A stretch of DNA of 55,093 bases, the filler included, from Jimgerdemannia flammicorona (taxonomy: Eukaryota), in NCBI GenBank assembly GCA_003990765.1. It is 3 parts of 3 records of this genome, joined end to end, with 100 filler letters (N's around TTAATTAATTAA, not from the genome) between each part and the next. Parts side by side here need not be neighbours in the genome. Positions count along the whole stretch, not along the records: positions 18,400 to 36,696 come from RBNJ01002246.1; 2 more parts are not named here. One strand, given 5' to 3'. The notes under the pieces were generated by a model, which had not been told where the DNA came from, did not search any database, and worked only from the letters and a program-made list of their open reading frames with translations. Below are positions 3,231 through 38,741 of the stretch, piece after piece. Position 1 is the first letter of the stretch; every line of letters starts with the position of its first letter. The translations under genes were made by a program, and so were the position numbers.

Positions 3231-3339
3231 TCATTCTAGTATAGGATTTTGAGAAGTTGTTCTTCTAGAGAAAAGTTTTCTCTAATATTATATATGTACT
3301 TATTCTGATTCTTATTTTTCTTGTACTTGAGTTCAGTAA

Positions 3340-4480: not shown

Positions 4481-4699
4481 ACTGATCTTCAGATTCTTCA
4501 TCTGTATCTTCTTATTCATCTTCTTATGTATTGTGAGCTTCTATGATCTTGTACTCTTGGTTCTTGATAGTAGTTATAAGTCCTACTCTCAACTGCTATC
4601 TGAAGGTAGAGACTTCTTCTATTGTCTGAAAGTAGTATTGATCTTCTGTTTCTTAAGATCCTTATAGATATCATACTGGTGGACTTTGGTCTTATACAG

Positions 4700-5900
4700 C
4701 TTCTGTTCTTTCTTACTTTTGCTTTCTTCTGAGACTAGAGTATATCTTTAATAATTTTATGGGCAGCTTCATCTAACTCTATGTCTTGATCAATCTCCTC
4801 AGATTGGATCTTACTTTGAATAGTAATAGCTAGAGTCTTCTTTAGTCTTCTAACTAGCTTACTATTACTCTTCTTATCATAAAGCTTAGATCATATTCTG
4901 GTAAGTTTAGTAACAGAGTAGAATTCAGACTTCTTAAGGTACTCTTCATTATTAGTATCACCAATCTCCTCAATGACTACTATATTGATATTCTGATAGC
5001 ATTACTTAGTTGGGCTCTGCACCTTGTTTTTGGTCATGTAATTCTTTGCATAGTGGTCTTCTTCTCCATATTTGAAATATATAATGGTACATTCCTCTGT
5101 AGTGACTGCAAACTTCTGCACTAATCTTCTGTTAGTACTTTATACTTCTCTAACAATATCATCAAAGTATTCAGTCATCTTGGCAAACTGCTGGATGAGT
5201 TTCTCTACTAAGTTAGCTTTAGCTATCTTGGGGATAGGTGGAGATAGTTGTCTGTTAATGACTGTGGTGGATATGATATTGATTGGCTTTAATGGCTCCA
5301 TCTTGATGCTAGTTATTCTTTTCATTGAGTTTTCAGCAGGGTGTCTAGTAGTCCAATATCTCTATAAAGACCACTTTCAGATCAAGAGTTAGAGCAGCTG
5401 AGATAGACTGGATTGCTAGAGCAATTTTATAATAAACTTTTTTTAGGAAGATTGAATTAGCTATCTATTCCTTAAAAGTATTATTATAACTAGCCAAGAT
5501 AATCTAATGACAGATTCAGATATAGAATGAGTTGGGATCTTCACTAAGTCTCTGGTAGATAGTATTAAATTGATCTTTAAAAGCTTACTTGATTCTTTAG
5601 TATAATATGTAGTTCTGAGGAAATTCTTTATATTGATAAGTTTGGCTGTACTAGCATTAGTAATAGTAGCTATATTGAACTTATCTCTGGTAGGTTCCCT
5701 GAGGCTGACTAGTTGAAGGGCCAATTGTATATCCATAGTGAGAGCTTATACAGTAGCAAATTTTTCAAAGTCTTCAATGAAGATCAGGATTGACTCTTCA
5801 GTAGTAAATCTATAGAATATAGAGGGATATATTTCTATCTTATCTTGAGTTCTTATAGGGGGTGACTCTTATAGTCAGGGTAGTTATTATAGTAGTTCAT
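4700..5900 (-). pseudogene. gag of Gypsy A
   Basis: ATG at 5900, EESILIFIEDFEKFA capsid-like start, and a zinc knuckle near 5040-5080 reading YFKYGEEDHYAKNY (Cys>Tyr by G>A). Confidence 0.75.
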
Positions 5901-5956
5901 TTTTTAGCTTAAAAGTGAGAGATTTGTTTTGAATTACCAGCTAATAAGTACTAAGT

Positions 5957-6471
5957 TGTCACATAGTAGGTACTGAGTCCTTTAAATATGTCAGATTCTC
6001 TTCAAGATATATCTCTTAGACTAAATACAAGTTTGTTATAAGCAAGTTCTTATTGGAGTACCTTTCTAAGGTCTTATAGTTCTTAATATTTTTATTTTTA
6101 AACTGTCTTGTTATCTCTTAGATTGCTTACATAGAATTGAGTATAAGTGAACTGAGGAAACTGAGAGAACTTGGTAGTTCCTGGACCTTGAGGTTTGGCA
6201 GGCAGTAGGTGTTTTTGTTTATTGTGAGTCTTTGAACTATTTTGGGATTTATGAGTCTTATTTGAGTTACTACTACTGTAGTTTCTTAGTTTTTCTTTTA
6301 TATTTCTTGAGATATCTATCTTATGGTTATGATGACTCATAGTTAGTCATCATTACTCATCTTATAGCCTAAGTGAGTTATACCCTATGATCTTCTTATG
6401 CTCTGATTTAGTAACTTATAAGAAAAAGCTATCACTTATAATAATATCACTATTCTGAGATCACCATTACA
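5957..6471 (-). repeat. 5' LTR of family A, internally deleted form
   Basis: Ends are tgtcac...ttaca. Colinear with 46807-47015 plus 48087-48382 but lacks the 1.07 kb between them. The left boundary is tentative. Confidence 0.7.
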
Positions 6472-6507
6472 ATATACTGTAATAAGTAAATACTATAGTA
6501 TATACAG

Positions 6508-7697
6508 CTCCTTTCTCCACTACCTTACTGGTCACAAGGTTTGGTAGATGACCTTCTGAGTCCCCTTTCCTCTATTATTACCCCCTCTACCTCAGGTTGG
6601 TTTGCTGTACCTGCAGGGGCATGGTGGGAGGAGGGCAATGGTGATGAGTTGCCCCTTTATTGGTGTCAGATCGGTGCTTCCTCCACTTTTTTGTGGATTC
6701 TGGTGTCTTCGGCTGCATCTGGGGTGTACCCGTTTTGGTGCGGCGCCTTCTTCCTTTTGCTGTCACCAACAAGATATTGTCTCAGTATATCTCAGGCTAC
6801 ATAGGGAGTCGGCTGACCTTGGGCATCAAGTGCTCAGTGTAGGTTATCTGCAGGTCCTCGGTATCTGTGGTGCAGCCCTCTGGCTTTGGCGAGCTTCCCA
6901 GCGAGCATGGTTCTGGTGTAGGTGACTGCTTTTCGGGTGTTGTCGGGATGGGAGGGGAGATGGCCATCACAGATAGGTGGAAGGGCATTTATGGTGGACC
7001 AGTAGGGTGCCAGGCTGGGGGCGGTCATCGGGGCTGGGGCAGGTGCTGCTTCGGTGGGGTCTTTTGATTGATGCGGTGTAGTTAGGTGGTAGGTATCACT
7101 ATTGGCTTCCTTTGGCGGTCAGTGGGGTTGGGCCCCAGTCATCAGGGGGGGTCAGAAGGCCCGAGGCTATCCATTTCAGGCATCTTGGCTGCACTCAACT
7201 GGAACCGAGAGCTGACATGGCAATATGATCAAGGCCTGCAGGCTTGAGTAATGGGGTATTGGGGGTTTCCTCCCACCTCACATGTAAGTCCTTTACTCAC
7301 CTCAACTGAGAGAACCAGGCCCTATCCACCGTGTTGTGCTTTGATGAGAGTTTTTATTTGCCTATCATTCTCTTTGGGGTGGCAGGGGCTATTCTATTTG
7401 GCTCGAGTATGGCCTTATACATATGTTGGGTTCTCAGGTGTGTGCTTTTGGTCATTAGCATATGGTTGGGTTTCCCCTGGTGGTAGGGAGAGTATGGTGC
7501 ACAGAATGAGGTGTGGGCCAACATAGGCCCTGCTGCACCTAGCATGGTCGAGCTGCTGGACAATAGCTAGCCTAGGTTAATGGGGGGGCAGTGCTTGGTG
7601 GGTGGTGGGGGAGGGTTTTGGCCTATATAGTTTAGGTTCCCTTCTAATAAAAATCTGTGGGACATGAGTCTGTTAAAAAAAAAAAAAAAAAAAAAAA
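6508..7697 (+). mobile_element. Non-autonomous poly(A) retroposon (about 1.17 kb), copy 1
   Basis: AATAAA near 7645, poly(A) at 7675-7697, and a 17-bp TSD ctatagtata(ta)[c/t]agct at 6493-6509 and 7698-7714. Further copies at 18400-19573 and 54470-55029. Confidence 0.88.
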
Positions 7698-7859
7698 CTA
7701 TAGTATATATAGCTAGATAATATAAATCAGTTAAGCTGATCTTTGATAGAATACTTATTTATATAAAATATTTATTCTATATAAGAATACTCATTTTTTA
7801 GAAAAATAAGTAGTTATATCTCTTCTAAATTAACTTAACTACATATTTTATAATTATCT

Positions 7860-8200
7860 AAATAACAATCAAATAGTAATTATACTTATATAAAATACTC
7901 TAAAGATTTGAGTAAATAAACCTCAGTCTGAAAAGTTAAAGAAAAAGTAAAAGATAAATCTATCTATAATATACTTTAAGAGATATACTGTCAAGAGTTA
8001 CTTAATCTAAGAAAAGAATTATAATACTTAGAAGAAATTTTTACTTTGAAGTCACTATTAAGAAGATTATGAGCTTTATTCTCTTTTCTATTTTAGTCTA
8101 CCTTCTGATATAAAAAAGTCTACTATTTTGATCTACTTATCAGACAATATCTGAAGAACTCTAAGATACTTACTACTTTGAGAAATCTGCTAATTACTAT
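7860..8200 (+). repeat. LTR fragment, family B
   Basis: gagtaaataaacctcagtctgaaaagtt and its flanks are the reverse complement of 30730-30960. Confidence 0.65.
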
Positions 8201-8468
8201 ATTATATAAAATCTATACCTATTAAGAAAACTACAGAAATTATTTATATTATGTGGATAAGAAGAACCTATATCTATTTCTGAAAGATCTATAGAACTAT
8301 TAAATTTTTATTATTTTTGATAAAATAACTAAGGGCTCAAGCCAATCTATATAACAGGTTCTAATCTTATAATTTGTTTTTATTGAACTAGCATATTATA
8401 TTTAGAGGCTTAACTGAGAAGATTTTTGAAATCTATTATAAAGTAGTAGACACTTACTCTTGAAAGTA

Positions 8469-8888
8469 TGTCAGATTTCTGTATATTGAAAACTTGACTG
8501 TTCTGACTCTCACAGAGTCTCTGGAGTTGCAGGGGAGGGTGGGTGAGTTCAAACTGTATCTGCCCACAGACTTATTAGTTTCTTTGCTATCTCTTCACTT
8601 TGAACTATTTCAATCTGAGGTTTATTCATTTATATAAGTTTTGCTAACTATAAGGTGGCTAAGTAATGACTCATTTCACAAGTGTTGAATTTTTTAACAT
8701 CTGCTAAGATTTTGCTGATTGCGAAGATTCTAACATCTTCTAAATCTTTGCAAATATTAAAGTTTCTGCACTTTGTAGAATGTGGCTGCTATTTATGAAG
8801 CTAAGCTATATTGGGAATCAGATTCAGATACTGCAATCAAATGTCTAATTCCCCTATTTCATGTTACTAATTCGGATCAGCTGTCACA
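8469..8888 (-). repeat. Possible solo LTR
   Basis: tgtcag...gtcaca ends and an internal ctgaggtttattca...tatataagtt TATA/poly(A) core. No TSD found. Confidence 0.4.
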
Positions 8889-8899
8889 CTATATAACTT

Positions 8900-9636
8900 T
8901 TCATCTTATAGAATCTAATAGACAAACTAGATATATTTGACCTAGCACTAATCTCTGCTACTATAAGAGAAAGAATTATCAGTAGTATTTGGACAAGAAG
9001 AGAGTAATTATCTCTAGATTAGCTAACTATCTACTATTAGAAAGATCTTAAGAGAAAGCTAGCACTGTCTAGAATTCTCTACTATTAGTCTGATCACTAA
9101 ATCTATATCTAATAAATATATCTAAAGTATCTACAGACCTACTACTAAGAGATCTGACTCAGTCAAACCAACTAGATAATACAGATAACTCTATCTAAAA
9201 CTTTGATAAACTTGTATAAGAACTTGAAGATCTCATTATCTATTTTTAATTCTTCTTAAAAATTCTACCTACTTTACTTCTATCTAGACCAGCAATCTCT
9301 CAAGTTCAGTATCTTTAAGAATACTAAGAATTATATCTATATTCTAGAGACTAAGTATTTACTTCTCAACTTTCAGTAGCTCAACCAGATTCAGTATACT
9401 TATAGAAACTACTCCAGAAATAGACTTAGATCAGAAACTTAAAAAGAACTAGAAGATAGTAATAATAAAATAACAGTACTATTATTTATATTTATAGAAT
9501 ATTTAGAAGAAGACCCAATGGAATTCTTAGATACTTTTAAAGAAATTATAGCTCTAAAAGATCATACTCCTAGAAGACAAATTGTTATCTTTAAAGCATA
9601 ATTAAGAGAATCAGCTAAAGGAATCTTTACCAGTAC
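8900..9636 (+). pseudogene. Gypsy gag fragment related to family B
   Basis: FIEYLEEDPMEFLDTFK near 9490-9545 resembles FTGYPEEDPRKFL near 29500. The upstream leader resembles 29550-30030. Confidence 0.6.
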
Positions 9637-12862: not shown

Positions 12863-14854
12863 TTGGGGGGAGCTGGGGCTTTTGGCTGGCAGAAGGTGGA
12901 GAGGGGGTATAGCATGGGGATGGGGGCCTTTGGAGGGTCAAAGGTGGGAGAAAGCTCTGGAGGTGGACCAGTGTCTGGTGGATCTGGAGGAAGATCTGGT
13001 CCCTCCAGCTTTGCCAACAAGGTGAAGGTGGGTGGATGGCCTACTGGAACAAGGGTTGGTACTGCTGAGGGGAAGGGCAAGACTAGTGTCAGGAGGGGGA
13101 GTGGCCCTCAGAGGGGAGCAGTAAGTATAAGGACTGGTAGTGCTGTGGCTAGGGGTGTGACTGTTGATGGAAGTGTGACGGGGGATCAGGAAAAAAAAGG
13201 AGATGTGACAGCTGATGGCAGGGTGAGGCAGGGGTTCCCGATGTAGAAGGGGGACCTGGCCGATAGTGTAACGGGGCTAGTGGTGGCACCATTGCTCAAG
13301 AAGTTGATCTCGGAGTTTGCAGTAACTCTGTGCTTCCGAGGCTTAGGGGTGATGGTGAGGATGGTCTTGGGGCTTATCTTAAAGCAGGTGGCTGGGGCAG
13401 CTTCGGTGAAATTCCTGAAGGGTCTGGAGGGAGTTGAGGTGGGCTTTGAGGAGACGGGCCCACTGGAGGAGGTGCTGAGGGCAGGAGTGGCAGTTGGAGA
13501 GGTAGTGGTCCTCATGGTACGCTGTTTGAGGTAGGACCCCAGGGTGGTGCAGCTGCTGGTGAAGGGGGTGCCTACAGTGATGAAGGAGGAGATGAGGAGG
13601 AGGGTAGAGGAGGTGATGGTGGAGTATGGAGATGTGGTGGATATTGGCTTCCAGGTGTGGGAGGGGATAATGATTAGGACTGGCAATGTTGATGTCAGGA
13701 TTCGGCTGGCAGGGAGGGAGGCCACAGGGAAGGCAGGTGACTGGCCCTCAGTGTTGATGTGGGGGGCCTTTATTTATAAGGTATCGAGGGTGAAGGGGAG
13801 TGAGGAGGAGGAGGAGAATTTGTTGGAGGTATTGGAGGAGATGAGTGGTGTGGTGGAATGGTGGGCAAAGGCCTGGAAGCTCTATGAGGAGTCAATACAC
13901 TTGGAGATTGTAGAGGGGAAGCATATCTGCACTGACAAGAGGCAGTGGGAGCAGGCCCAGGGGCGCCTGAGGCAGAGAGAGCTCTTGGCGAGTATGACAG
14001 GAGGGGAGAAGAGGAAGGTTGATGGGGCTGAAGGGTCTGGAGGCATCAAAGCCAGTGTATGGGCTAGCGAGGGTGGAAAGGAGGTGGTGGTGACAGAAGA
14101 ATGGGCTGCAAAGGTGCTGGGCAGAGATCTCTATGTGGATGATACTTTCGAGGTCTGGGAGGAGGAGTCAGATAGTACTCCCCCCCCACTTGTCAGGAGG
14201 GGCCCAGTGGGGCAGAGAGGGGCAGCAGAAGATGTACCAATGCAGGGGGCCCAGTGGGTTACCTTTGGGGTCCCAGATGTGGTGAAAGGGGGCCAGGTAG
14301 TGGCTGTTGATGAGGATGAGCTAGTGGATGTCCCAGAAGAGAAGTGGAATGAGAATGCCAGTGTAGGTGCGGATACTACAATGCTGGATGCAGGGCGGCC
14401 AGGGACCCCTAGAGGGAAGGAGATTGGGAATCTGCTGTGGATGAGCAAGGTGATGGATAATCTTGCAGCTGAGATGTTGGGGGAAGTGGATCTGAGAGTC
14501 ATGCCAGAGGAGCACTGGGCACAGATTCTGCAAGGTGAAGGAGTGGTAGAGGTGCTGAAGATGGAGATTCTTACGATACTACTGGAGGAAGAGGGTTATG
14601 AGGTGGATGAGGTGAGGAAGGCAGAGTTGGTGGTTGTTGCAGGTGAGCAGGTGGCCTACTATTGGGCAGAACACCATAGTTTGCAGTTCTGGCAGGAGGC
14701 CTGTGGGGAGTATTGGGAGGACTTTGAGGAGAAAGAGAATGGGGCAATGGTTGAACTTCTGGAGAGATTGGAGGTACAGGGAGCTGAGAAGAAGGAACTG
14801 GCTGCAGAACATGTCTTGGATTTGGCACAGGAGGACTTGAGTGTAGATTTGTAG
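12863..14854 (+). pseudogene. LINE ORF1
   Basis: ORFs at 12863, 13280 and 13544 are in one frame, separated only by TAG stops. An RRM-like VQLLVKGVP...YGDVVDI segment is followed by an acidic C-terminus. Confidence 0.75.
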
Positions 14855-14885
14855 AGGAGAGGTTTAATCTTTAACAATATTCCTC

Positions 14886-17600
14886 ATGAACAATATAACT
14901 AACATTTTCTCTCTCAATGTGAATGGTCTTCGAGGATCTGGGCAGTGTAAGAACATTTTTACATGGCTAAAGGGATTGGAGGCTGATCTCTTTTTACTGC
15001 AGGATGTACAGTGTGAGGATGAGGATGATCAGGTTGAATGGACTAGGGAATGGGGTGGGGCTACCACTTGGTTTGGAAAGGTAGTGATTCTGATAAAGAA
15101 GGAAAGAGGAGATTTGGAGGGGATCACAAACTGGGGAGATCGATTGGTCTGGGGTGAATGGTACCAGCCAGGGTGGGATTCAGTAAGGGTGGGCTCATGT
15201 TACTGCCCAGCAGCTAGGGGAGAGAGGATTGTGTGGATTAAGGAGCTACTGGAGGAGGGCATTCTCTTGGAGGAAGGGGTCGATGTTCTTGGTGGCGATT
15301 TTAATATGGTTCGAGATTTGCAGTTGGATAGGACTGATGGAGAAAGGAATGCCAGTGGGAGGAGTGGCAGTCTAGATGCATGGGAGGAGGTGGAAAACCT
15401 TAGCTCCTTAGAGGATATGGGCCAAACATAGTGGGGTGACACCAGGGTCTACATGCACTGGGTGAATGGCTTAGGGACAAGAATTGACTGGATTCTGACA
15501 GCTGAATGTTGGGGTGCTGATGTCTGGAAGACTTTGGAGGTGGTGTGGTGCCTGTGGTCTGATCACTGGGGACTGATTAGGCAGGGGCAGTTTGGGGGGA
15601 GTAGAGATGGACCCAGACATTGGTGTCTTAACTCCTCCCTGCTGGCAGAGAAGGGGTTGTGGGACTCATGAGTGGAGGACATACAGGCAAAGATCCCACC
15701 CCGGAGGCAGGAGGGTTTATCTGTGGGTGTCCATTGGATGAGATTGAAGGAGGCTGTAAGGGTTTATTGGGGTGGAGCTAGTAGGGAGGCAGGGAGAAGG
15801 AGGAGGAGGCAAATACAGTGTGCCTCAAATAGGCTGAGGAGATTGCAGTTTGAATGGGCAGATTTGCTTACATCTGATAAGGTAGAGGATTGGAGGTTAG
15901 AGAGGGTGAAATTGGAGGTTATAGAGCTGCAACAGGTGTTGCGAGAGGAGGAGAAGACTCATATGTGAGGAATGGCAGCCAGACTTAGATGGCAGGGACT
16001 TGAGGAGGGGGAGCAGCCTACTAGGTACTTGTCTAGGCTCCTTAAAGCCAGGCGGGTGAGGTATAGGTGAGATAGGATCTTGGATGCTGAGGGAGAGTTG
16101 GTGCATAGTATGCAGTAGATCCTGGGAGTATTGAAGGAGAATTGGCAGGGTCTGTGGAGTGAGGAAGAAGGGGGTGCTGATGCAGAGATGATTGGTAACA
16201 CACTGGAGGAGTGGGAGCCGCCATGGGTAGAGGGGCTGGGTGACTTGATCTTACTAGTCCAGGAGGAGGAGATACAGGGTGTCCTGGCAGTGACTAAGCT
16301 TGGGACGGCACCAGGAGAGGATGGATTACTGTGGGACTTCTGGAAGAAGATGGTGAAAGTCCCAGGGATGCTGGGAGAGATGGTGGCCCTCTGTGACCAT
16401 GTTCTTCTAAATGGCATGTGGGTTAGTGAGCAGGACTTAGGACTGGTTGCCCTATTGTACAAAGATAAGAGCCAGTGTGAGGATTGGAAGAACTGGAGGC
16501 CAATCATGCTTCTGGATATGGATTGGAAGTTGGTGACTAAGGTGATTGTTGCAAGGCTACAGAAGGTTGCTCAACAGGTGCTGGGGGAGGAGCAGAGGGG
16601 CTTTGTAGGTGGTAGACTTATCAGAGATAGAACTGCCTGGGTGCATGGCATTATTGAAGGAGCCCGGACCTGTGGACTGGATGGGAGACTGGTTTTTTTA
16701 GACCAGAAGAAGGCCTACGACCATGTTCGGCGGGTTTGGTTGGGCAAGGTACTGGACAGAATTGGCATTCCACCACAGTTTCAGGCCTCTATGTTGAGTC
16801 TGTTGGAAGGGAGTAGAGCGGTACTGATGTGTAATAGTTACAGGGGTTTGGCATTCCCCTTGGGGAGAGGAGTCCCTCAAGGGGACCTGCTGTCTCCTAT
16901 CCTTTATGCACTCTCCTTGGAACCTTTGATGGACAGGATCTGTAAGAGGGTGACTGGGCTCTTTGTGTATGAGGTGGAGTAGAAGGTGGGGGCCTTTGCA
17001 GATGATATAGTAGTTGGACTTGGATTAGTAGTGGATGTCGAGGCTCTTTGGGAAACAGTGGAGTGGTATGAGGCACACTCTGGAGCAAAGCTCAACTGGC
17101 ATAAGTATGAGATGATGGTGCTGGGGAATGGGCTAGTGGGAGGAGATGTCATTGTAACAATTGTCCCCTCAGGAGAGGTGGTGTGGTATCTAGGTATTTT
17201 CCTCTCTGTATATGGATCAGTCCTACCATGGATATGGTGGGAGAGGAGAGTGGACATTTGGGGAGAGGCTCTAAAAGGTTGGGGGGGTCATCACATCTCC
17301 CTGGCGGGGAGGGTGGCAATTATGAATATATACTAGTTCTCTAAGCTGTGGTATGTGGCATATCACTTAGAATTTCCCACTTGGGTGGTGAAGAGACTGA
17401 TGAAACTGGCTAGGGATTGGATTTGGGCTGGTAGAAGGGCCCAGATCAGTTGGGATACCCTTGTCGAGCCAGTGCTTAGGGGAGGCCTGGGCCTTGTTGA
17501 TTTCCCTAAGTGTCTACACTGCCTGCGAGCTTGGTAGTTGAGAAGGGCTGTTGATCTACAGGGTGGAGGTTGGGTGCCATTGATGAAGAAGGTGTGGGAG
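14886..17600 (+). pseudogene. LINE ORF2: APE endonuclease + reverse transcriptase
   Basis: SLNVNGL, GGDFN, RIDWI, SDH; APGEDGL, NWRPIMLL, FLDQKKAYD, GVPQGDLLSP, AFADD. Six ORF pieces all lie in the same frame. Confidence 0.93.
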
Positions 17601-19699: not shown

Positions 19700-20767
19700 A
19701 TATAGATATTACTGAGTTGAATTAGATATAAAGATAGAAATTTCCACATAAACTTTCTGTTTTTTAGTCTCTTGAACTAAATGTCACAAAAGATAATTAT
19801 ATAGATAGGAGTCCAAGTAACTATAAAAAAAATTAAAAAAAATTAAAAAATAACTATACAGCATTTCTATAGATTCTATAATCTATACACTGCTCTATCA
19901 TATCTGAGAAATATATACTTATCTATCTTAGGCTCAAACTTGTCTTTATTACTACTCTTATTTAGAATATAAGCCTTACTTTCAAATATTTATAAGTATA
20001 AGATATTAGACTTAGATCTACTCTACAATTCTTCAGAGATAAGATCACTATCATTCTTAGATTTGCTATTTCTGGATTGCTGATTATTGCCAGATCTATT
20101 AGAATTCTCACTTAGAGCTTAAGAAATACAATTATTTCAGATATATATTGCTGTATTCACTACTTTAGTCCAAAAGGAGTATAGTAAGCTAGCCATATTC
20201 ATCATTATTTAAGCCATCTCTACTACTATTCAATTAAAGTATTTTACTATACTATTCTGTTCAGATATATAAAGAGCTATTATACATAGAGTATTAGATA
20301 TCATACTTCTTTAAGAAGTCTCTGAAGACTTTGTTGATATATTCTTTACTGTTATCTAAGTATAAGGTCCATATTTTACATTCTATTTTATTTTCTATAG
20401 TTATTTTAAATTTTCAAAAATTTTCAAATACCTCATTCTTTACTATAAAAAAGTATACATAGGTTTTATAAGTATAATCATCAATAAAGATAATAAAGTA
20501 TCTCTTCTCAGAATATATTGAAGTTCATATAGAACTATAGATATCTGTATATATTATATTGAAAATACCAGCCACTTACTTTATTTGTTCCTGAAAAGAT
20601 CATCAGAAAGTCTTATTTATTATATATCTATTATAAAAGCTGAAATCTAGTGATATATAGTTCAGTAATCTAACTCTTTATCATTCATTCCAGGCTTGTC
20701 TTACTGATGTATCTCAAGTATTTATACTATATATATCAGATATTAGTTGCTATTGTAAAATATATAG
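19700..20767 (-). pseudogene. Ty1/copia GAG-pre-integrase + integrase core
   Basis: Minus translation: YKYLRYISK, IIYTDIYS, RYFIIFIDDYT, LDNSKEY, EQNSIVKYFN, SFWTKVVNTAIYI. Confidence 0.85.
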
Positions 20768-21228
20768 TGTGATGTTGGTTATGTATAATGAACTTCGACT
20801 ACATGGCTCAATGTGTGCCACTTGGTGAAGTGCGCGATGGATGTGAGTGCGTTCGCGACGGTTACGGGTCGATAGTCACGTGATCAGCTCGTTCGATTCG
20901 TACGATAATTGATAGCGGGAGTTCGTTCGATGATGGCTCAATTGTTTGAAGATGAGATTGTTCGGTTGTTCAACGATGGTGGCTCAATTGTTTAGTAGAT
21001 AAGGGCGGCGGTTATGCTGGCTAAGTTTCCTGGCAGTGATTAACTTGGCGATGGTGGGCTTGCTCTTTTATGCGGTCAATTAAGGCGGTCTGTGGCGCAG
21101 TAGCTTAGAAAAACAGGGGTTGACGGCTCACTTGTCCATCTTAACTTGTTAGGTTCCTGGTGGTTGTTTGGGTCTTTGGCAGCAGTCTTGTATCCTTTGG
21201 CTGGGTATCCTTGGGTTTCCAGGTCTTG

Positions 21229-21395
21229 AATCTCGAATGGTGGTCGAATGCGTGGTCTGAATGGCAGTCCGAATGGCGGTCTGGTCTTGAATCCTTGGCT
21301 GGGTCTCGGGTCTCGAATAGCAGTCCAAATGGCAGTCCGAATGGCGGTCTGGTCTTGAATCCTTGGCTGGGTCTCGGTTCTCGAATGGCAGTGGT
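21229..21395. repeat. Tandem repeat in U5 (68-bp period, with gaatggcagtcc subrepeats)
   Basis: ggtcttgaatccttggctgggtctcgg at 21283 and 21351. Confidence 0.85.
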
Positions 21396-21726
21396 TGGGT
21401 AACGTTTTCTTTCTGTGGCAAAAGAAAATTCTTTAACTCAAACTTCCGAGCGATCCGTTGCTCTAAGTTGTTATCTTGTTCTCAGAATTTATCCAGTCTC
21501 TTGGAGGCAGTGGTTTCTTTGTATGTAATCCTTTTTACTTTTAAACACAAGCTGACTGAGGTTTATTCACTCTAAGAATATGGGTTATTTATACAAGTTT
21601 GCTAGCTATGGGGGAGGGGGCGCGACTAAGACTAAGGTATACTACATTGTGGCGAACTTATGCTATTGGTTTGCACGATGCGAGGTGCAGGCTATTGTTT
21701 ACTACAGATTGGGTTGTAGGAGATAG

Positions 21727-21930
21727 CAACACTGGATTTGGACCTGCTGACAAAATGCTGAAAACAGTGGTACTGGGTAGCAATGCTGGATTCGGATGAG
21801 CTGACATGATATAATGATTGTTACCAGAAACAGTTGTGGAGGGTGGTAACACTGAATTCGAACCTGCTGACAAAAATGCTGAAAACAGTGGTACTGGGTA
21901 GCAACACTGGATTCGGATGAGCTGACATGA
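21727..21930. repeat. About 120-bp direct repeat in U3 (enhancer-like)
   Basis: acctgctgacaaaa(a)tgctgaaaacagtggtactgggtagcaa...ggattcggatgagctgacatga occurs twice. Confidence 0.85.
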
Positions 21931-21960
21931 GCTGGGTTCTCACAGCTGATGGGCGGTACT

Positions 21961-23061
21961 CTAGAGGAAATAGTACCCTTCGTCCGTGGTGGGCAAATCT
22001 TGCTGGGTTGTGATTTCTTCTTCATCATATCTCTCCTCAAAGGGGGGAAGTGCTGGCCAAGAGGTGAGGGGGTAGAAAAGTGGCCAGTCATCTTCAACAA
22101 CATTCTCCAACCCTTGAACAGCTTGAATGCGGACAGAGGACTGGTAGACTCTCTGTTGCTCCTCTTCTTCTTCTGAAGGCTTGTCAGTTTCAGTGTCAGA
22201 GGGGGTTTCTTCAGGGGCAGAGTCTTGGAGTTCTTGGACCTCCTCTTCAAAGACAGGAACTTCTTGGGCTTCTTCTTGATTCGGTTCCCAAATAATGAGG
22301 TGTGAATTGTGGCTGACAGGGTGGTGGGTGGTTGGGGTAGCTCCAATGGGTGTCTCTATAGTGATGGGCGGTCCTTCAAATATCTCCATAAGACTCATTA
22401 GGTGACCTTGATGGTTGTCTCGGAGTGGGGTGGTGTGGAAACCTGGCTGAGTAGATTCGGTTTGTTGGCTTCCTACAGCGATGCAGTTGCTACCAATAGT
22501 GTTGGCTACTTCAGATTCTATCCAGTCAGCATCTTCAGTTGAAAGGCAGGAGAGGCTGCCAGCTATTACTCCTTGCAAGTGTGCTATAGCCCAGGGAATA
22601 TGGCAGAAGATTTGATGGACACAGAGGGCTCTCTTGATTAGCCGGCTGGTGGTTAACATTTCGGCAATGAGGTCTTCCTGGTCACCTTCTTGAGTCTCAT
22701 TGCGAAGGCGGTGTCCAATTTCATAGTCATGCCAGAGGGTCATTCATTCGGTAGTGTCTTTGAGCTACTGGGTCATTATATACTAGTAGTTGATGAAGTG
22801 TCCAAGGTCCTCGGTGTAGAAGTTCAAGTATTCAGAAGTATCTGGGTGCCAGATGGCCTTCTTGATAGCTTCAAAGATCAGGGTCTTTGGGCCAGGCAAA
22901 GGGGTAGAGCGGTGGGAGGTCTGGTTGGATCGGCGAATGGGAGGCATTGTGTGGTAGGTACTTGGTTCTTTGGTGCCGATCCCTGAGGTGGAGTATGGTT
23001 CCTTAAATAATGTGGTCTTCATTTTGACTCGGATTATCTTGCCTTCTTTTGGGATGGTCAC
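21961..23061 (-). pseudogene. LTR U3-encoded ORF of unknown function (about 366 codons, three nonsense codons)
   Basis: ORFs 22783-23061 and 21961-22743 are in the same frame. Homologous to 47508-48080. Confidence 0.75.
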
Positions 23062-23154
23062 CTAATAGGTCAGGCTGTCTATTTGATTGTCATGCCATTA
23101 TGTCATCTGATCTTAGCAGTCACTGGTACTCCGTTTTCAATTGTGTACATCACA

Positions 23155-24340
23155 ATAGATACATAATATACTACTTAACATACTATCAATTATATATAGA
23201 TTTCCCCATTTCAATATATATATTAACTCTTTATTATTCTTTATATTAATCATCATTATACTATTCAGGTATATATTTACTCCTTTATCTTCTTAAGTCA
23301 TAATCTGATCTATTAAGAAGAGATTCTTACTTATATCTAGTATATATAGTATGTTCATAAAGATGTCTGAGAGTTCATCAATATTCCTATATAAGTGTAT
23401 ATTGATATTGCCCTTATTTTGAGCATAAATAATATTATTATCTCTTAATTTGATAGGTACAGAATGCTTGAACTTCTCATATATAGAGAACTACTTACAG
23501 TATGTTATCATATATTACATTATACTAGAATCTATAAGCCAGACTTCTTCACTATATATATAAGTACTCAGTATATAGCTTATATTAGCACTAGTACTAA
23601 AACAAGTAGAACTGATGGTTGGAGTATTTTTCATCAATGTAAATTTATTTTTTTGAATTTATTCATATATCTCCCTCTATATATGAATAGATTACTACTT
23701 TTACAAAAAAAAGACCTCCACTATCTCTATTACTGTTTTTATTATTATTGATATCTATGATATTTACTTGTCTATATTACTCATCTTGATTGTTCTTTTT
23801 CTTCTTATAGTTATAGTTTTGCTCATAGTATCTATACTTATCATAGTAGAAGTATTTACTATTAAATTTGGCTTATTGACCATCATATTACTGGTTTTGC
23901 CCTCATTCTTTATTCAGCTTGTCTTTATCTCATCTATATACTCTGTAAAATACTTTCTCATTATCTTTATTATTGTTACTACCTAGCCTCAATTTCTAAT
24001 TTAAAAAACTTATAATAATATACTTATAGTTTAATAGTTTGCCAGATTCTCTTATAGTGATAATAACTATATTATATATCTTAGAAAGACCAAGCATAAG
24101 GGTCAGAACCTTGTCTTCATTCTTGATGAGATCTGCCAGTATAGAAAGATATTGAAATATCTTAGTTATAGCAACTCAATATATAGTAGTGCAGTCTGAC
24201 TATATTATTATATAAATGTCATCAATATGTATAAAAGTATATAAGTTAGTATTAATAAATAATGCCCACTTTCCTTTCTTGATTTCTTTAGACTTATCTG
24301 GTAAGCAAACTAAAAATATAGTGGACTTCTCTTAAAAATA
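23155..24340 (-). pseudogene. Ty1/copia gag + protease
   Basis: NEDKVLTLMLGL (gag); VWLIDSSI...F..YEKF...IKLRDN...NKGNI...NILYILDISKNLF (copia protease). Confidence 0.8.
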
Positions 24341-24349
24341 GACTCATTC

Positions 24350-24792
24350 TTTATATCAGAAAGTAGACTGAAGTGGAAAGTAAGCTCACAATCTTTTAGT
24401 AGTAGCTTTAGAGCAGGTGTTTCTTCTAAGTATTACAATTAATTGACTTTTGACAGATATATCTCTTAAAGTATAATAGGCAGACTTGTCTTTTGCTTTT
24501 GAACTTTTTAGACTAAGGTTTATTTACTCTTATCTCTGGAGTATTTTATATAGTTGTGATTTCTATCTGGTTGCTATCTAGTTAATTATAGAATATACAA
24601 TATAGCTAAATATAGTGTATAACTACTACTATACCCTCAGGGTACAGTATCTTTAAGATATAGTACCTTTGAGATTCAGTTGTCTTAATCTGGATATCTG
24701 GTGCTATTTATATAATTTTGGTAGCAATTAGACAACTATAATATATGAGGGTTATATTATCTAGATGTCTGATACTTATATTATATATTACA
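24350..24792 (-). repeat. LTR fragment, family B, inserted at the end of an RT domain
   Basis: Aligns with 30730-31170 and ends ...attaca at 24792. Confidence 0.7.
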
Positions 24793-25929
24793 ATAGATTC
24801 TTTCTTTTGAAACTATAAATTTAAGAAATTTGAGTTTCTGTTTTCTGAAGTTATATTTCTTAGTATTGAGTCTCAGATGGTTCTTGTGGATAAGCTGAAA
24901 GAATTCTTCTAGATAGTATAGGTGATCTTTAAAATTTGCTAAATAGATATTAAAATTATCTATATATATATAATCAGACAGTAGTGGATCAGTGAGCTAT
25001 AGACTGAGTTCATCTTTCTCTGGAAGGTGGGTAGGGTATATTACAGAGTCCAAAAGGTATTTAGAGATATTTAAACAGTTTTTCTAGAGTAAGAAAGGCT
25101 GTTTTCTGAATGTCCTTAGAGTCTATAGAGATTTTGTAAAATCTTGCAAAAAGATCTATATTGCTGAAGTATCTGATATCTGGTAATTAGTCTAAGAGAT
25201 CATCAATTCTAAACAAAGAGTAGGCATCTTTTTCAGTAACTGAGTTGAGCTTTCTATAATCTACACAGAGTCTTCATCTTCTTTTCTTGGGTATAATAAG
25301 TATAGAGCTAACCCAGAGGCTGGCAGAGAGTCAGATAACTCTATTATCTAAGAGTTTCTGGATATATTCCTTCTTGAATATCTTTAGATAATAAAATATT
25401 CTATTAGACTTCTACTAGATAAGTGTTGTATTTTCTGTATTTATACTATAGTGGTATAATAGATTATATAGCAGATTGCTATAGTCTGTGGTAAAGATAT
25501 CTTGGTATTTATAAAAGAGTTCTACTAGTTGTTACTATTATTGAGATATTAGTTCTTCTTTAATGTTGGTAAAAGACTTCACTTTCTCCTAGGTTAAAAA
25601 GAGGTCTTTTCTTTCTTCTGGGACCTTCTGTCATTTTTTTATAGATTTAATTTATAAACTTCTTTGTATATTTAATTGAGATAGAGCACTAGATAGTCTA
25701 TAATGGTTCTTTTTGGCAAAATGAGACCTTTTTAGCTTTGGTTAATTATCTGAGAGTATATAGGATTTATCATATCAGAAAATATATATCTTTCTATATT
25801 TAGATTCTTTCAAAGATAGTTTGCTCTCTTAGTTCTAGAATGAGATTCTTATATAGCTTGACTGGTTCACAGTATACTTACTGAGGGGTATTTTTTTAAA
25901 AATAGTTAACCTAGAGGAGATATACTTCT

Positions 25930-26320
25930 TTTTTATCTGAGCTTTCAAATCCTTTAGTTTGTCTTATGTCTTGAGTCAGCTTAGAGATCTCTTATAGTTG
26001 AGAAGTCTTGACCTCTATGAAGATTACTTGTGTAATCTTTTATTCTTTATCAATTTAGTATTATTCTATATTACTATTGTTCAGAATAACCTTAATTTTA
26101 TCTATATATCCAGAGTCTATTATTTCTCCTTCTATAGTTATTTCTTATTTAGTGAGTCTAAATCTTGAGACTAGTTAGATATAAATTTCTTTGGATGACT
26201 ATATGGCTAGTTCTGTTCTGAGTACTATTATTTTTCCAGACTTGATAGATTTATCTTTAAGGCTGTAGAGATTATATTCCACATCTTTTTAGTAAGCTTT
26301 GGTTGGGGGTTTGGTCCTGA
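25930..26320 (-). pseudogene. dUTPase domain of Gypsy B, degenerate
   Basis: PPTKAY..DVEYNLYS, GEIIDSGYIDKIKVIL (motif 3) and RQTKGFESSD (motif 5). Confidence 0.8.
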
Positions 26321-29300
26321 AATATAGTAAGATATATTGAGCAATATCTTTACTAAGTTTGGGTTATCCTTAGGCTAAGACTCTAGTGAAAATAAGTTCC
26401 CAGGCTCTAAGATTAAGGTGTAGCCATCTGGCTCCAGTAGAGGGGTCTTAGAGATAATTGATTCCTTGGATCTAGAGCTTCTATGAAATTGATGGTATCT
26501 TCTATCCATCCTTAATAAGTGGTATGTCTGATGAGAGCTAGAATGTTATCTCTTAGATCATAGATCTTGAGAACCTTCTTCTTTAGTTTTTAGGTTTAGT
26601 TTCTTTGGATCTGAGCTCTATTATTTTCTTTTTTTAGTATATATATAGTAATATTTTGGCTAAGGTGAATCTTCTGATATAGATAGTCTTAGCCGTCTGA
26701 GTATCTTCTATATTATAATATTCTATTGCTCAAAAATATAGTTCTTAGTTATTGATTTCTTACTACCTTGGGAATCAGTATCATAAGTTAGGAAAAGAGT
26801 GGCTAAGAGCTATACCTCTATTCAGATGAAGTGGTCTTATTCATTGACTCATTTTTTCAATATAGTGGTAGTTTTTTGAAAAGTAGTTGTCTATATAATT
26901 GATTAGAGATTCTGGTCTACAGTATCTCTATTTTTCTTACTTTAACTAGTTTTAATTATTAATAATAATGAGTGAAATAAATACAGCAATTCAGTAGTAA
27001 TAGGTTCAATAGGTAGCACTGATAGCAGTAGTCTTGAAGAGAGTAGAAGACTATTTGATACTGATATCTTCCTAGCTGAAAGACTCTTTTCTGATATATT
27101 TCTTATCTTTGAATAATAATGACTATACTTGATTCTTCTTCAGTATTTCAAGAGTTATTATCTTCTGATAGTACATATCTAGTGAGAGTTATCTCAGAAG
27201 ATGAGTTCAGAAAGCTTTTTCTGTTTGAGAACTTCTTATTCAGAAGTTTTTTCTTTAGATACTTCTTGACTCCAAATTGCTTATACTTTTATAGATTTAG
27301 TTGTAGATATTTTTAGAATACAGTTATATTTCTTCTTTCTTCTTCTATACTTAGAGTAGGCTATATCAGACAAATTCCTTATTCTAATGATCTTTGAGAA
27401 GTATTCGGAGTACTTGTATTTTTTGAGATAAGTGAAGCATCCTTTAATTTATTCTACAATGGCTCTGATAGTAATAGAGATAATATCTTTAACTCATATA
27501 TTATCTTCTGGTCTATCATCTACTAGATTGATTTATGGGTTGAGTCTGGGATTATTTCTATTCTCAGATTCTTCTTTTTCTTCTATAGTAGATTCTTCAC
27601 TACTAGTATACTCTTCCTAGATAGTAATCTTCTTCTTTTTCTTCAATTACTTATATCTGATTACTTTAATTCTGTACTTCTTCTCTCTGTAGTTAAATTT
27701 GAGCACTTATTAGCCAATGTCAATAATTGTATTCATTTTCTTTATCTAGTTGATACTAAGAATCATATTATAGATAATAGCTTCAGTAATAACAGCTTTT
27801 AGAATAAAAAACTGAATATGTTTCAGAGAGATAGTAATGTTTGTACTTCTCTAAGAGATTGAGTTTGGGCTCCATCTGCTACTATAATACTAAGGTTAGA
27901 TGGTCTATTAATAGACCACTGAATGGTGTCTGGAAATTATTTAGTAATGATATAGATAGCTACTTCTGTATTAATATAGATTTTTATCTTTTGTCCTCTA
28001 ATATCTCTATATAAGCATATACTAATATATCTTTCTATAGCCTGGATAGTAGTTAGTGCTAGTTCTTATTGTGGGATTGAGACTTAGTCAGTACTGGATC
28101 TTATAGTTCTTAATAGTTTATTTGGAACTCCAGTAGATATTAGTTGTAGAAACTATAGAAGAGAGACTTCTATCTTGGCTTCTTGAATCTTTTACCAGAC
28201 TTCATTATAGATATCTCTAGATATAATCTTCAGGGTATACTTCTTCTTGAACTTTAAGATAATAGACTCTTGTTCTTCTTGTTTCATTTCTTCATTCTCT
28301 GGTAGTAGTTTATTTGTTTTGAGAACAAAAGGTGAGAGAGACTATGGAAGTATTTCTACCTACTCTTCTTTATATTTTTTATCTTCTTTTTAGACAATCT
28401 TTCTATTGGTATTTCTGAATGGTCTTTCTATAGATCTCTTTCTTTTCTCTACTAGGTAGACTATCTTCTTAGTAATGATCTTGATTGGATATAAGTTTAG
28501 ATTACTGTAATTTTCACTATTGCTTTTTTTTTTCAAAGTTTTCAATAGAGTGAGCTTCAGTCTTCTTATACTAGGTTTCATTCTTTTGACTTAGTAGTTC
28601 TGAGTCCCTTTAATTACTTCTCCTATTATCATATTCTGTAATATAATATCTAAACTATCTATAGTAAAAGTATTGAACTTAAGCTCTATCTTAGACAGAG
28701 TACTTTCTTTCTTCTTATAGCTAGTGACTCCTGTTATCTCTAGATAAGTAATCTTGATTTCTTTATAATATATACCCTCTGTTGTCCTATTAGTAGCTTT
28801 AATTTTTACATATAGTGAGTTTTTCAATTTACTCAATCAATTGATCTAGCTTAAAGTTGAGGTCTTGGATTTCATTTCTTCTTTCTTCTATTTCTTAGCT
28901 AACTTTTCTTCTTCAGATCTTTCTTATTCTTAGAAAAGTCTTTGCAGAGTCTTGACCAGAAGGTCTTCTTTATTATTCTTCTTAATGTACTTGATCCAGA
29001 TAGTTTAAAATTAAAGTAACCTTAGGCTACATTTATTTATTCTTCTAGTTTTCTGATATTTAGGATATAAATATACTGAAGGGATTTTATTCATAAAGGT
29101 TATTAGACTAATGATATTCTGATTAATAGAGTTGAATCTAGTAGTATGTATTCTCTTCTGAATTCTTATAAAGAATATACTGGGTAATTCTTTAAGATTT
29201 ATCTTTATTTTTATAATAGATTCTTGGGTCTTATAGCAGATCTTATTTCTTGTATACTTTTTAACTAACCAGTAGCAAATGACTTCATAATCTTTTATCT

Positions 29301-30113
29301 AGTTCATTATATTGGCCAGAGCAATTTTAAGGTCTGAGTTGGGATTATCTTTTGCTTGAATAAATATCTTTAACTAGTTCTCTTAGTTGGTCTCTAAAGA
29401 TGACTATCTTTCTCTGACTTGTCAAATTCTTCAAAATAGTAATTTCTTCAATTGTAATAAGAAATTTTCTAGGATCCTCTTCTGGGTATCCTGTAAATAT
29501 TAGTATTGGAATAGCCATTTTGTCATCACTTTCTTCTAGCTCTTATTCTGATTTAATTTCAATTTCTGATAAATTGTCTGAACTTGTAGAGCTTGGGTAA
29601 CCAGTAGCTGTGGTTACTAGTCTTGGAGATAGTCTGGCTGGACTTAGTAGTCTTGACTAGGGTTTCTGGTTCAACTTCTGATTGTGTGTCTGCTGGTCCT
29701 GGTAGTGGATCAATGGGAGAGATTTTTAGGAGATTTCTGCTGATATAATTATTGAGTTATATCAAAGTATTCAGACTTGCAAACTATCTATCTTCAGAAG
29801 AATCACAGCCAAAGGATCCTCAAGAAGAACCTAGCACTACACAAAACCTACCAGCAGACCCACAACTCACCAATACTTCAGAAGAGTTCACAGACTGAGC
29901 ATATAAATAGCTACCACAACCAACTGAAGCAGGACAGCCAGACAATCTTGACAACCTTCTGGAGGTAATTACTTCTCTTTCTGTCCAAACACTGCTGATA
30001 ATTCTGTTTTCTGTAGTAGCTGAGACTGGCATTGGATCAAAAGTATTATTGGTATCCAGTTTGAATGTTGGATTCTTGTGAGCTGAAAAGTCATGTAGAT
30101 TTTAAAGAAAATC

Positions 30114-30131
30114 TTCCCTGTTGAGCCCCAA
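30114..30131 (-). promoter_or_regulatory. Primer-binding site, tRNA-Pro-like
   Basis: tggggctcaacagggaa directly after the LTR resembles the tRNA-Pro PBS TGGGGGCTCGTCCGGGAT. Confidence 0.65.
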
Positions 30132-36796: not shown

Positions 36797-37400
36797 CCCC
36801 CCCTACTCTCTCTCAATAAAAGACCACTTTATCAACTACCATCTCTATCTATCCACCACTCTGTTCACAGATCTCTTCTATCAGATAGTGACATCACTCA
36901 CTCTAGGGACTCCAACTAATTCACCACTCAGTCAGCAGATCTCCCAACAACTTCTCTCATCTTAACAACTTCTCTTATATACCTATCTGTTACTTTTTCT
37001 CAAAAACAAAAAGCTAATGTCCAGCCAACCCTACCCACACTACTAAAACTCACTCTATAGTGAGCCAACCATTGCTGATACCTCCCACTAATTGAGATTT
37101 CAAATCCTTCCAGCAATCTCTCTCCCTATCTAACCTCCTCTCCATACTCAGCTGGTCCCCTACTGCTATCCAAAAGTCCCCCAGAACCTCACACTCTCAC
37201 AGCCAATGTTCTGGCATTTGTACAAATCCCCTAACTTGCTCTATATTATAACACTCCTCATAATATAATCAGCCACCATCTACTAGATGTCTAGCATAGA
37301 AATTCAACATAACATTCCTCTACAATATCTGCCATCATACCACCCAGAACTTGGAAGGAAGCCATCTCTACACCTCAGCACTCTATGACTAGACTCCTGC
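36797..37400 (-). repeat. Degenerate LINE-like 3' fragment
   Basis: Homologous to 1-163, with a G-rich minus strand. Confidence 0.4.
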
Positions 37401-38741
37401 CTAATAGCTTCTATTCTTTAATACTTTCACTTTTTCCTGAGACTGGAGTAGTATCTTTAATAATTTGGCAGGTAGCTTTATCTAACTCTATATTTTAATC
37501 AATCTCCTCAGGTTGGATCTTACTTTGAATAGTAATAGTTGAGATCTTTTTTGGTCTTCCAACTAGCTTGCTGTTGTCTTTCTTATTATAGAGCTTGGAC
37601 CAGGTTCTGGTATCTTCAGTAACAGGGTAGAATTTGAACTTCTTATAGTATTCTTCATCATTAGTACCACCAATCTCCTCAATGACTATAGTATTGATTT
37701 ATTCTCTAGTTCTGGTAGTATCACTTGGTTGCTATATCTTGTTTTGATTATGTAATTCTTTGTATAGTAGCCTTCTTCTCTATATTTGAAGTATGTGATA
37801 ATGCATTCCTCTATAGTAATTGTAAACTTCTGCACTGGTCTCCTGTTGGCACTTTATACTTCTCTAATAATATCACTAAGATATATAGTCATCTTGGCAA
37901 ACTGCTGAGTGAGTTCCTCCACTGGATCAGCTTTGGTCATCTTGGGAGTAAGTAGAGATAGTTATCTGTTAATGGCTATGGTAAGTATAATACTGGTTAA
38001 CTTTGATAGCTCTATCTTGATACCAGTTATTCTTTCTATTAAGTATTTGGCAGAGTATCTGGTAGTCTAATATCTCTATGCAAAGATCACTTTCTGATCA
38101 AGAGTCAGAGCAGCTGAGGTAGACCAGATTTCTAGAGCAATTTCATGGTGGACTTCTTTTAGAAAGGTTGAATTAGCTATCTGTTCCTTGAGAATATTAT
38201 TATAGCTAGCTAAGATAATCTAGTGATAGATTCAAGTATAAAATGAGGAGGAAGAAGGCCTAGCAGGAGCCAAGGGAGCGAACCCAGAGCCAGTGTCAAA
38301 GTGAATGGAAGACATGTGGAAGAGTGTGTATAAGGGGGACGAACAAAGAACATAACTGAAAATGCATCAGCTGTTTATTGCCACATAAAAATATAGTCCT
38401 TATATACAAAATACGACAACTCAAAAGGGAGGATGCGCCACAACTCGGGGCGAACTGAATTAGAAACCACATGACCACCGGAGATAGGCAGAGATAAAGG
38501 GGGAGCCAATCCCAGTTACAGGATAAAAATCACAAACAAACACAAACAAAAACAAATCCAAATTGAGATTAAAAAACATCTGCAGACCCTGGAGGGGTGA
38601 GCGTGAGCGAGGGGTGAGGCCGAAATGGAATGAGCTGCAGCGAGCCTGAGCGAAGCGAGGGGCCGAAGGCAGCGGAGGGGAGTGGAGTAAGGCCGAGACC
38701 CCGGAGTGAGCGCGAGACCCCGGAGGGGGCAAGGATGTTTT

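Follow-up and report, generated by a model that had tools for sequence, protein, structure and literature searches.

In the literature searched, the extra genes reported for retrotransposons lie between the long terminal repeats (LTRs), and genes inside LTRs are recorded for retroviruses. A stretch of the genome of Jimgerdemannia flammicorona (GenBank assembly GCA_003990765.1) raises the question of whether the LTR of a retrotransposon can also hold a protein gene. This stretch, hereafter the window, is 55,093 nucleotides (nt) long and consists of three parts of three records joined end to end with filler letters between them, and all positions below count along it. On its minus strand, the window contains a 2387-bp unit that holds a long, interrupted reading frame. 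An earlier inspection without database searches (the sequence-only reading) had taken this frame for a selected accessory gene of Gypsy elements, shared by two LTR families and surviving in solo LTRs. Our analysis indicated that the unit is the LTR of a retrotransposon and carries an accessory gene within it, and that the copy in the window is a pseudogene. We put the overall probability that this is a selected, LTR-borne accessory gene at roughly 70%.

The unit (20768-23154, 2387 bp) starts with TGTGATG at 20768-20774 and ends with CATCACA at 23148-23154, which together form a 7-bp inverted repeat. It thus shows the marks of the LTR class, TG...CA ends and a 4-bp target-site duplication (ATAG), and re-reading of both ends and of the ATAG pair confirmed the clean boundaries described before. 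The GC content is 47-49% within the unit versus 27-30% in its surroundings. Neither ordinary BLAST nor BLAST with purines and pyrimidines pooled found a further copy in the window.

The identity of the unit was examined with near-identical copies from outside the assembly, by aligning Logan contigs of four runs to 20568-23354. Three of the runs were soil metagenomes or had no named organism and one was guessed to be RNA; they contained 0.25, 0.22, 0.06, and 0.05 of the sampled words. Contigs departed from the window at 20768 in run X1 (three records) and run X2 (one record) and at 20774 in run X7 (one record). Before 20768, the contigs of these runs read ...ACTTTCCCAGTTGAGCCCCCAAAA, that is, they departed into ...CCCAGTTGAGCCCCCAAAA. 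Read on the minus strand, this junction consists of CATCACA, TTT, and TGGGGGCTCAACTGGG, a primer-binding site (PBS) complementary to the 3' end of a tRNA (T-stem CCCAG, acceptor TTGAGCC, discriminator C, and CCA). At the other end, contigs departed at 23154 in X1 (two records) and X2 (one record) into TCTGCCCCTTGCAAAATTAGAGCC, so that on the minus strand ...GCAAGGGGCAGA, a polypurine tract (PPT; ...AAGGGGCAGA), stands directly before TGTGATG. Since the outside flanks share no common duplication, these are the inner junctions of 5' and 3' LTRs and not the edges of another solo copy. The 2387-bp unit is a true LTR, present in the window as a solo copy, and we refer to its family as family B. Its sense strand is the minus strand, with which the PBS and PPT junctions of the outside copies agree, and the orientation given by the sequence-only reading was right.

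A PBS of the TGGGGGCTCAACTGGG type also follows the LTR ends of another gypsy family of the window, family C, at 8403 and 30131. A degenerate PBS pattern gave 51 matches versus 50.7 expected, and the exact-like matches at these two positions alone were used. The family B solo LTR sits within the pol region of an older family C element, in which a dUTPase was located at 26306-25937. The dUTPase-bearing Ty3/gypsy group to which the elements of the window belong probably includes family B as well. No tRNA and no Rfam family was found in the window.

The minus-strand frame at 23061-21964 comprises 366 codons with exactly three internal stops and is closed by TAG at 21963-21961. The internal stops (TAG 22785-22783, TAG 22767-22765, and TGA 22746-22744) all fall within 14 codons. 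At these sites the intact relatives described below carry, where they cover them, R, Q, and R or Q, respectively, so the stops fit C-to-T or G-to-A changes. The description of a sense frame of about 366 codons at 23061-21961, broken only by three transition-type stops, therefore held when re-read with the residues of the relatives. The start probably has to be placed further in. Five of the six relatives with an N-terminus begin at residues matching M39 of the frame (MPPIRR..., ATG 22947), and the sixth, P0007, starts 25 residues further in. The true start is therefore most likely ATG 22947, giving a gene of 328 codons, and the first 38 codons of the 366-codon frame are probably non-coding. 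The proposal that the gene survives in solo LTRs did not hold for this solo LTR, whose copy is a pseudogene with three stops. The part of the gene that encodes the acidic tail is also spanned, in a different phase, by a 217-codon lysine-rich frame (window 21702-22355, minus strand), which most likely results from a GAA/GAG-rich run and is not a second gene.

The protein belongs to an orphan family. An exhaustive HMMER search of 1.84 billion representatives yielded seven proteins at E<=0.001, and a profile search of 5.8 billion clusters yielded 13 clusters. The relatives are all on contigs of 567-4848 nt, and the sole name given to them by their sources is 'hypothetical protein'. A metagenome scan added a single locus of 1535 nt (L001), a scan of viral contigs for the family found none, and no longer fused forms (642-2000 aa) occurred among 7213 candidates. 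The intact relatives have lengths of 325, 342, 271, 247, and 291 aa. Three groups can be distinguished: a B-type group with P0002 (325 aa, 79% identical to the window copy), P0003, and P0013; an A-type group with P0011 (271 aa), P0007 (247 aa), P0012, P0014, and P0016; and a third type with P0004 (342 aa), P0005, and P0010 (291 aa, translated from L001). By eye, a motif (TCAGGCGGAAC...TCAGAACA) was seen in L001 on both sides of the intact gene, at 171-205 and 1476-1510, and the pair could be repeated regulatory sites.

Identity between the three groups is 28-47%. Across them the start MPP/MPA...R is kept, with the exception of P0007, which begins at an internal Met, and so are the motifs W-x-E/D-Y-E-I, H-Q-I/V-F-x-H-x-P, and F-E/Q-G-P-x-I. 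An alignment of 12 sequences contained six invariant columns and 12 more conserved at 90% or above, and an alignment of six sequences contained 25 invariant columns. Our main argument for selection on the gene is that the frames stay open at 28-47% identity. Variation within the A-type group avoids the columns conserved between the other two groups (5/39 versus 54/163, p = 0.011). Among the 32 of 652 contig pieces listed, gaps were present in 1 of 16 pieces inside the gene (6 letters) versus 5 of 9 in the rest of the LTR, and all 12 listed indels (of 31) lay at 21446-21581. From these sequence comparisons, the frame is judged to be a real, conserved gene.

The sequence-only reading had also placed a divergent homolog at the same position in the LTR of a second family, family A (47508-48080), on the strength of the colinear blocks IFxxIxxA, LNxxTxDxxHFI, YEIG, and QIFxxIPWxIxxL. 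All four blocks are present in both copies. The significance of the protein alignment depended on the method: tblastn alone was marginal (47948-47769, 30% over 63 aa, E = 0.011), whereas the family profile found a colinear copy on the minus strand in three frames, at 48096-47986 (24 bits), 47981-47598 (115.5 bits, E = 9e-37), and 47623-47507 (12.9 bits). Between the middle piece and P0011, an intact protein, identity reaches 62% (E = 1e-56). The A-type start is recognizable upstream, with ATA in place of ATG at 48141. The homolog lies 241 nt inside the terminus TGTAATG (48382), and the start offsets, 208 nt in family B and 242 nt in family A, bear out the claim of a shared position.

The terminus TGTAATG recurs at 6471, upstream of gag, and at 324, after the PPT AGGAAGAAGA and downstream of integrase; standing beside a PPT and upstream of gag, it is therefore the LTR terminus of a Ty3/gypsy element. 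The Ty3/gypsy order of protease, dUTPase, reverse transcriptase (RT), RNase H, and integrase was seen for family A only. In this element (element 1, or copy 1), the counterpart of 48087-47016, and with it most of the gene, has been lost by a deletion between AACTGAGA repeats. In copy 2, a 3' end of the LTR is suggested at 47143, where ...ACTTACA is followed by AAAGTTTTC, a motif that in families B and C comes behind the PBS; the 9-mer has four occurrences in the window, counting both strands. A PBS for family A was not found in the window. Outside the gene, the LTRs of families A and B showed no significant DNA likeness (pooled local alignment score 94.5 versus a shuffle mean of 84, sd 10). 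We conclude that the gene is certainly inside the LTR in family B and probably so in family A. Of the claim that it is a selected accessory gene of fungal Gypsy elements, the conserved open frames and the second, Ty3/gypsy LTR family speak for it, and for family B the pol type is a deduction.

Whether the gene of family B lies in U3 would depend on which of two predicted TATA boxes serves as the promoter of the genomic RNA. One belongs to a core with AATAAA downstream of the frame, and the other, a TATA-like box, precedes the frame. Many outside contigs match only the core, diverging at 21556 and 21610, with very high depth there; as the sole part of the LTR common to other LTR families, the core fits a promoter/poly(A) module. 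Since TATAAATA stands 27 nt before AATAAA, the genomic RNA would start at about 21560, with a short R and the gene in U3. No RNA run was listed among those that contain the unit. In run X12, guessed to be RNA, depth was high at 21405-21683 and low over the gene; as this stretch is common to other families, the result was not used. The sequence-only reading had put the gene upstream of enhancer-like repeats and the TATA box. This stands for the pair of 83-bp repeats and for TATAAATA, but the 68-bp tandem repeat lies past the core TATA box and is therefore no upstream enhancer.

An alternative would place the gene in R and not in U3. The box at 23009-23001 would then be the genomic promoter, the core would serve mainly as a poly(A) signal, and the frame would be an 'ORF0' before gag, the first cistron of the full-length RNA, and present at both ends of the RNA. 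This would agree with the TATA-like box found upstream of the start in all four copies examined, at 62 nt in family B, 65 nt in family A copy 2, 91 nt in family A copy 1, and 80 nt in L001. It would also agree with family A, in which about 180 nt separate the end of the frame from the suggested LTR end at 47143, a tight space for promoter, R, and U5, and with the plant Retrosat2/RIRE elements, which carry ORF0 upstream of gag-pol (PMC3485330). However, R would then exceed 1 kb, and more than 2 kb would separate the cap from gag. In addition, TATAAATA and AATAAA in the core at 21556-21610 have the spacing that is the layout of short-R LTRs, and it is the core alone that is shared with other LTR families. 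We regard a long R as unlikely, and the gene may lie in U3. The TATA-like box of the gene itself suggests that the LTR may be a complete transcription unit.

Several results weigh against a selected gene carried inside the LTR. For the B-type group, the test of within-group variation was not significant (9/55 versus 42/147, p = 0.10), and no third-position excess was seen: among 15 gene sites the codon positions were 5/4/6 (40 of 175 variants listed), a count of our own that includes the hypermutation of the window copy itself. A third related LTR family (6478-8399 and further copies) has neither a homolog of the gene nor a long frame. No full-length family B element was seen, and its pairing and pol type are deduced from junctions of 24-30 nt in runs that are soil metagenomes with at most a quarter of the sampled words. 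The structure models are poor (pLDDT, the predicted local distance difference test, of 40 and 56), and nothing supports DNA binding. The 3' LTR of family A element 1 matches the 5' LTR over 172 nt only (324-152) and then joins unrelated sequence at a TTAAGA microhomology, so the gene could sit between a short LTR of about 172 nt and gag. In that case the frame would be internal in family A, and possibly in general, with family B having acquired it differently. This is rather improbable: the 6 nt of microhomology at the break recur in the second copy of the unrelated sequence, which looks like a rearrangement; the end at the break is not TG...CA and no PBS follows it; ...ACTTACA and AAAGTTTTC stand downstream of the frame at 47143; and for family B it is certain that the duplicated unit, flanked by the target-site duplication, contains the frame.

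It is also conceivable that the frame is a captured passenger or a decaying relic that does nothing for the element, open only because its copies are young. The lack of a known domain or fold, the difference of about 20% in protein between B-type copies, and the broken window copy are in keeping with this. We consider it very improbable, since three groups at 28-47% identity keep full frames, the start, the motifs, and the layout of charges, where neutral decay would have closed the frames, and two LTR families hold the gene at the same place. That the unit is no LTR at all, but a small non-autonomous element or a DNA transposon with short inverted ends, is hardly credible. One copy in the window and ends without internal direct repeats would fit such an element, but PBS and PPT junctions lie exactly at both ends in outside copies, the ends are TG...CA with a 4-bp duplication, and both terminus and PBS match those of the neighboring gypsy LTRs.

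For the LTR-borne gene we propose the following organization. The 2387-bp unit is most likely a solo LTR of the dUTPase-bearing Ty3/gypsy group with the minus strand as sense. Its 5' part carries a TATA-like box about 145 nt in, an ATG at nt 208, and 328 codons, followed by direct repeats and then the TATA/AATAAA core. The orphan family is carried by at least two LTR families of the source genome and by a third lineage in soil metagenomes. Its proteins begin with a short basic stretch, continue with about 150 conserved residues that make up a helical core, and end in an acidic tail with many hydrophobic residues. Each LTR, paired or solo, may be a small transcription unit ending at its own poly(A) signal; alternatively, the gene may be the 3'-terminal gene of the genomic RNA, as in MMTV sag (mouse mammary tumor virus) or foamy-virus bel.

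The four members of the family tested are all acidic overall (pI 4.6-4.9), with the first 30 residues positive and the last third strongly negative; the strongly acidic C-terminus noted from the sequence thus proved common to them. Two of the groups have DLIxF and xLNFL motifs in common in their tails. Pfam found no family at E up to 10 in the read-through protein (X at stops), a sequence profile against the PDB gave no match at E<=10, and the ESM Atlas gave no usable match. A first AlphaFold model had a pLDDT of 40; a second had a mean pLDDT of 56 and a predicted template modeling score of 0.50, with pLDDT of 58-91 over residues 50-160, and showed a helical core. The fold comparison proposed with the sequence-only reading was run on this second model. 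Foldseek found nothing at E<=0.001 (best E = 0.42), and the highest Z in a wide VIA-align search was 4.5, which does not reach the noise level given for helical models, so nothing rose above noise.

A helical core with an acidic, hydrophobic tail resembles transcriptional activators, and by this analogy an activator model is favored. We tentatively suggest that the protein may be a regulator that binds via its helical core and activates LTR transcription via its acidic tail. The foamy-virus Tas protein, of about 300 aa, has a DNA-binding part and an acidic activation tail and turns on the LTR. Other candidate roles may be RNA export, in the manner of Rev or CERV, or counter-silencing. We further speculate, with considerable doubt, that each LTR could act as a free-standing cassette of TATA box, 328-codon gene, and poly(A) signal, so that hundreds of solo LTRs could supply in trans a factor needed by the family, either an activator of the LTR or, in a genome that mutates its repeats, a blunter of repeat-directed silencing or mutation.

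The state of the window copy can be understood from the mutation pattern of its surroundings. Between two 3.66-kb copies (38245-42413 versus 41909-46071) there are 321 transitions versus six transversions, mostly at CpG and CpA. The mutated C stood before G in 149 cases, A in 117, C in 44, and T in 10, against backgrounds of 590, 1037, 1219, and 1207. Pooling purines and pyrimidines raises the identity of repeat pairs from 80-92% to 96-99%. Compared with outside copies, A or T in the window LTR opposite G or C was commoner than the opposite case: from the window LTR to X1 there were 29 A>G and 23 T>C versus 15 C>T and 18 G>A changes (transitions 85/87). The AT-rich stretches of the window (23-30% GC) are, by this signature, heavily mutated retroelements, with a pattern like that of repeat-induced point mutation and a preference for CpG and CpA. 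The three stops in the gene are read as part of the same repeat-directed hypermutation, which has struck all repeats of the window, and the window copy is dead.

Other features of the window concern the elements around the gene. The element with the PBS at 30131, into which the family B solo LTR is inserted, is a heavily mutated Ty3/gypsy sequence with RT motifs in translation; it extends over 23600-30131 (minus strand) and has a plus-strand relative at about 7840-9630. A pair of LTR termini faces each other at 6471-6478 with six bases in between (...ATTACA ATATAC TGTAAT...). At 6471 the family A element on the minus strand has its 5' end, and at 6478 a plus-strand LTR (6478-8399), bounded at its far side by the PBS at 8403, likely has its own. 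A G-rich repeat lies beside both family A copies, at 1-163 and 36803-36965, and is joined to the cut 3' LTR at TTAAGA. Positions 1-152 were considered as an unmutated family A LTR and rejected, as pooled-alphabet BLAST gave no match. An 8.1-kb insertion in the gag gene of family A copy 2 (38245-46393) is built of about 2.2 tandem copies (91.6% identical) of the 3.66-kb unit. It ends in inverted repeats of about 337 nt (38245-38581 versus 46391-46055), has a strong purine skew, and matched RVT_1 only weakly; an unusual retroelement, DIRS-like or of another kind, may be present here. A non-LTR element resembling long interspersed nuclear elements occupies 13151-17380 on the plus strand, with an endonuclease at 14868-15428, RT at 16119-17333, 51-56% GC, and a strong G skew. 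A degraded inverted copy of it at 50411-53375 (minus strand) was seen only with transitions pooled. The coordinates of the main features are collected in Table 1.

Table 1 Features of the LTR families in the window, with positions counted along the whole window
Feature	Position	Strand	Details and basis
Target-site duplication ATAG, left copy	20764-20767		identical 4 bases at 23155-23158
Family B solo LTR, 2387 bp	20768-23154	-	LTR 5' end at 23154, 3' end at 20768
Target-site duplication ATAG, right copy	23155-23158		pairs with 20764-20767
TATA-like box TATTTAAGG	23009-23001	-	nt 146 of LTR, 62 nt 5' of start codon; predicted function
Accessory gene, 328 codons + stop	22947-21961	-	ATG at LTR nt 208; pseudogene here; frame and relatives
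Two 83-bp direct repeats, 92.8% identity	21728-21809, 21848-21930	-	between gene and core promoter; putative regulatory role
Conserved core	21556-21610	-	TATAAATA at 21594-21587 and AATAAA at 21567-21562; motifs and outside contigs
68-bp tandem repeat x2	21260-21392	-	R/U5 side of core TATA, downstream of TATAAATA
Family A LTR copy 2	47143-48382	-	5' end TGTAATG at 48382 firm; 3' end 47143 only suggested
Family A homolog of the gene, hypermutated	48141-47507	-	two frameshifts, several stops, ATA for ATG at 48141; profile
Family A element 1	152-6471	-	5' LTR end 6471; gene stub from 6212; gag ATG near 5899; Zn knuckle near 5097
Family A element 1, pol	protease 4462-4157, dUTPase 3742-3365, RT 2983-2531, RNase H 2329-1946, integrase 1683-1216	-	
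Family A element 1, 3' side	PPT 334-325, 3' LTR 324-152	-	3' LTR cut short
Family C PBS	30131-30116	-	same tRNA site as family B, after LTR end ...CACATTACA + TT; exact-like match
Second family C-type PBS copy, mutated	8403-8418	+	exact-like match

A gene borne by the LTR is doubled in each element and left behind in each solo LTR, which changes the view to be taken of dosage, of trans-complementation, and of the 'death' of an element. A conserved family without a recognizable domain is also a clean target in the search for new retroelement functions. For annotation, our results are a warning that such 'hypothetical proteins' are LTR-borne.

Among known systems, the Sag protein of MMTV is a membrane glycoprotein, and its gene, of about 320 codons, lies in U3 in the sense direction. 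Both LTRs contain it, and expression comes from the 3' copy or from additional promoters. It is an example of a retroviral gene inside an LTR (PMC2118998). The gene described here is similar in length, about 320 codons, runs in the sense direction of a long LTR, and precedes the putative LTR promoter. MMTV is a vertebrate betaretrovirus, whereas the host here is a fungus-like soil organism and the element a retrotransposon in which no env was seen; the protein is acidic and predicted helical, and no likeness to Sag was found in sequence, Pfam, or fold. The tas/bel genes of foamy viruses and nef of human immunodeficiency virus are 3' accessory genes that run into U3 and start upstream of the LTR, whereas the present gene is wholly inside the LTR, 207 nt from its edge, and no homology to them was detected.

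Other retrotransposons carry extra genes at other places. The brtn gene of Botrytis is antisense. It is an additional gene of the Ty3/gypsy elements Boty/BcGypsy1 (10.1101/2021.04.13.439636), and CERV of the Caenorhabditis elegans element Cer1 is required for nuclear export of the genomic RNA (PMC10309623); in contrast to the gene described here, neither is reported inside an LTR in the sections of these sources that were available. ORF0/ORF1 (open reading frames) of the rice elements Retrosat2 and RIRE3/RIRE8 and of plant Ogre-type Ty3/gypsy elements are lineage-restricted genes of elements with very long LTRs that evolve fast (ORF0 7.6-90% identical) and have no outside match (PMC3485330). 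Unlike the present gene, ORF0 is there described as lying between the 5' LTR and gag-pol, it is plant-borne, and it has no sequence relation to our family. In the full-text literature covered, which lacked most subscription journals, no LTR retrotransposon, fungal or otherwise, was reported to have a protein gene within its LTR. If the cassette model were true, the gene would correspond, in a retrotransposon, to the regulatory genes that complex retroviruses carry; it would have arisen independently in fungi and would outlive its element.

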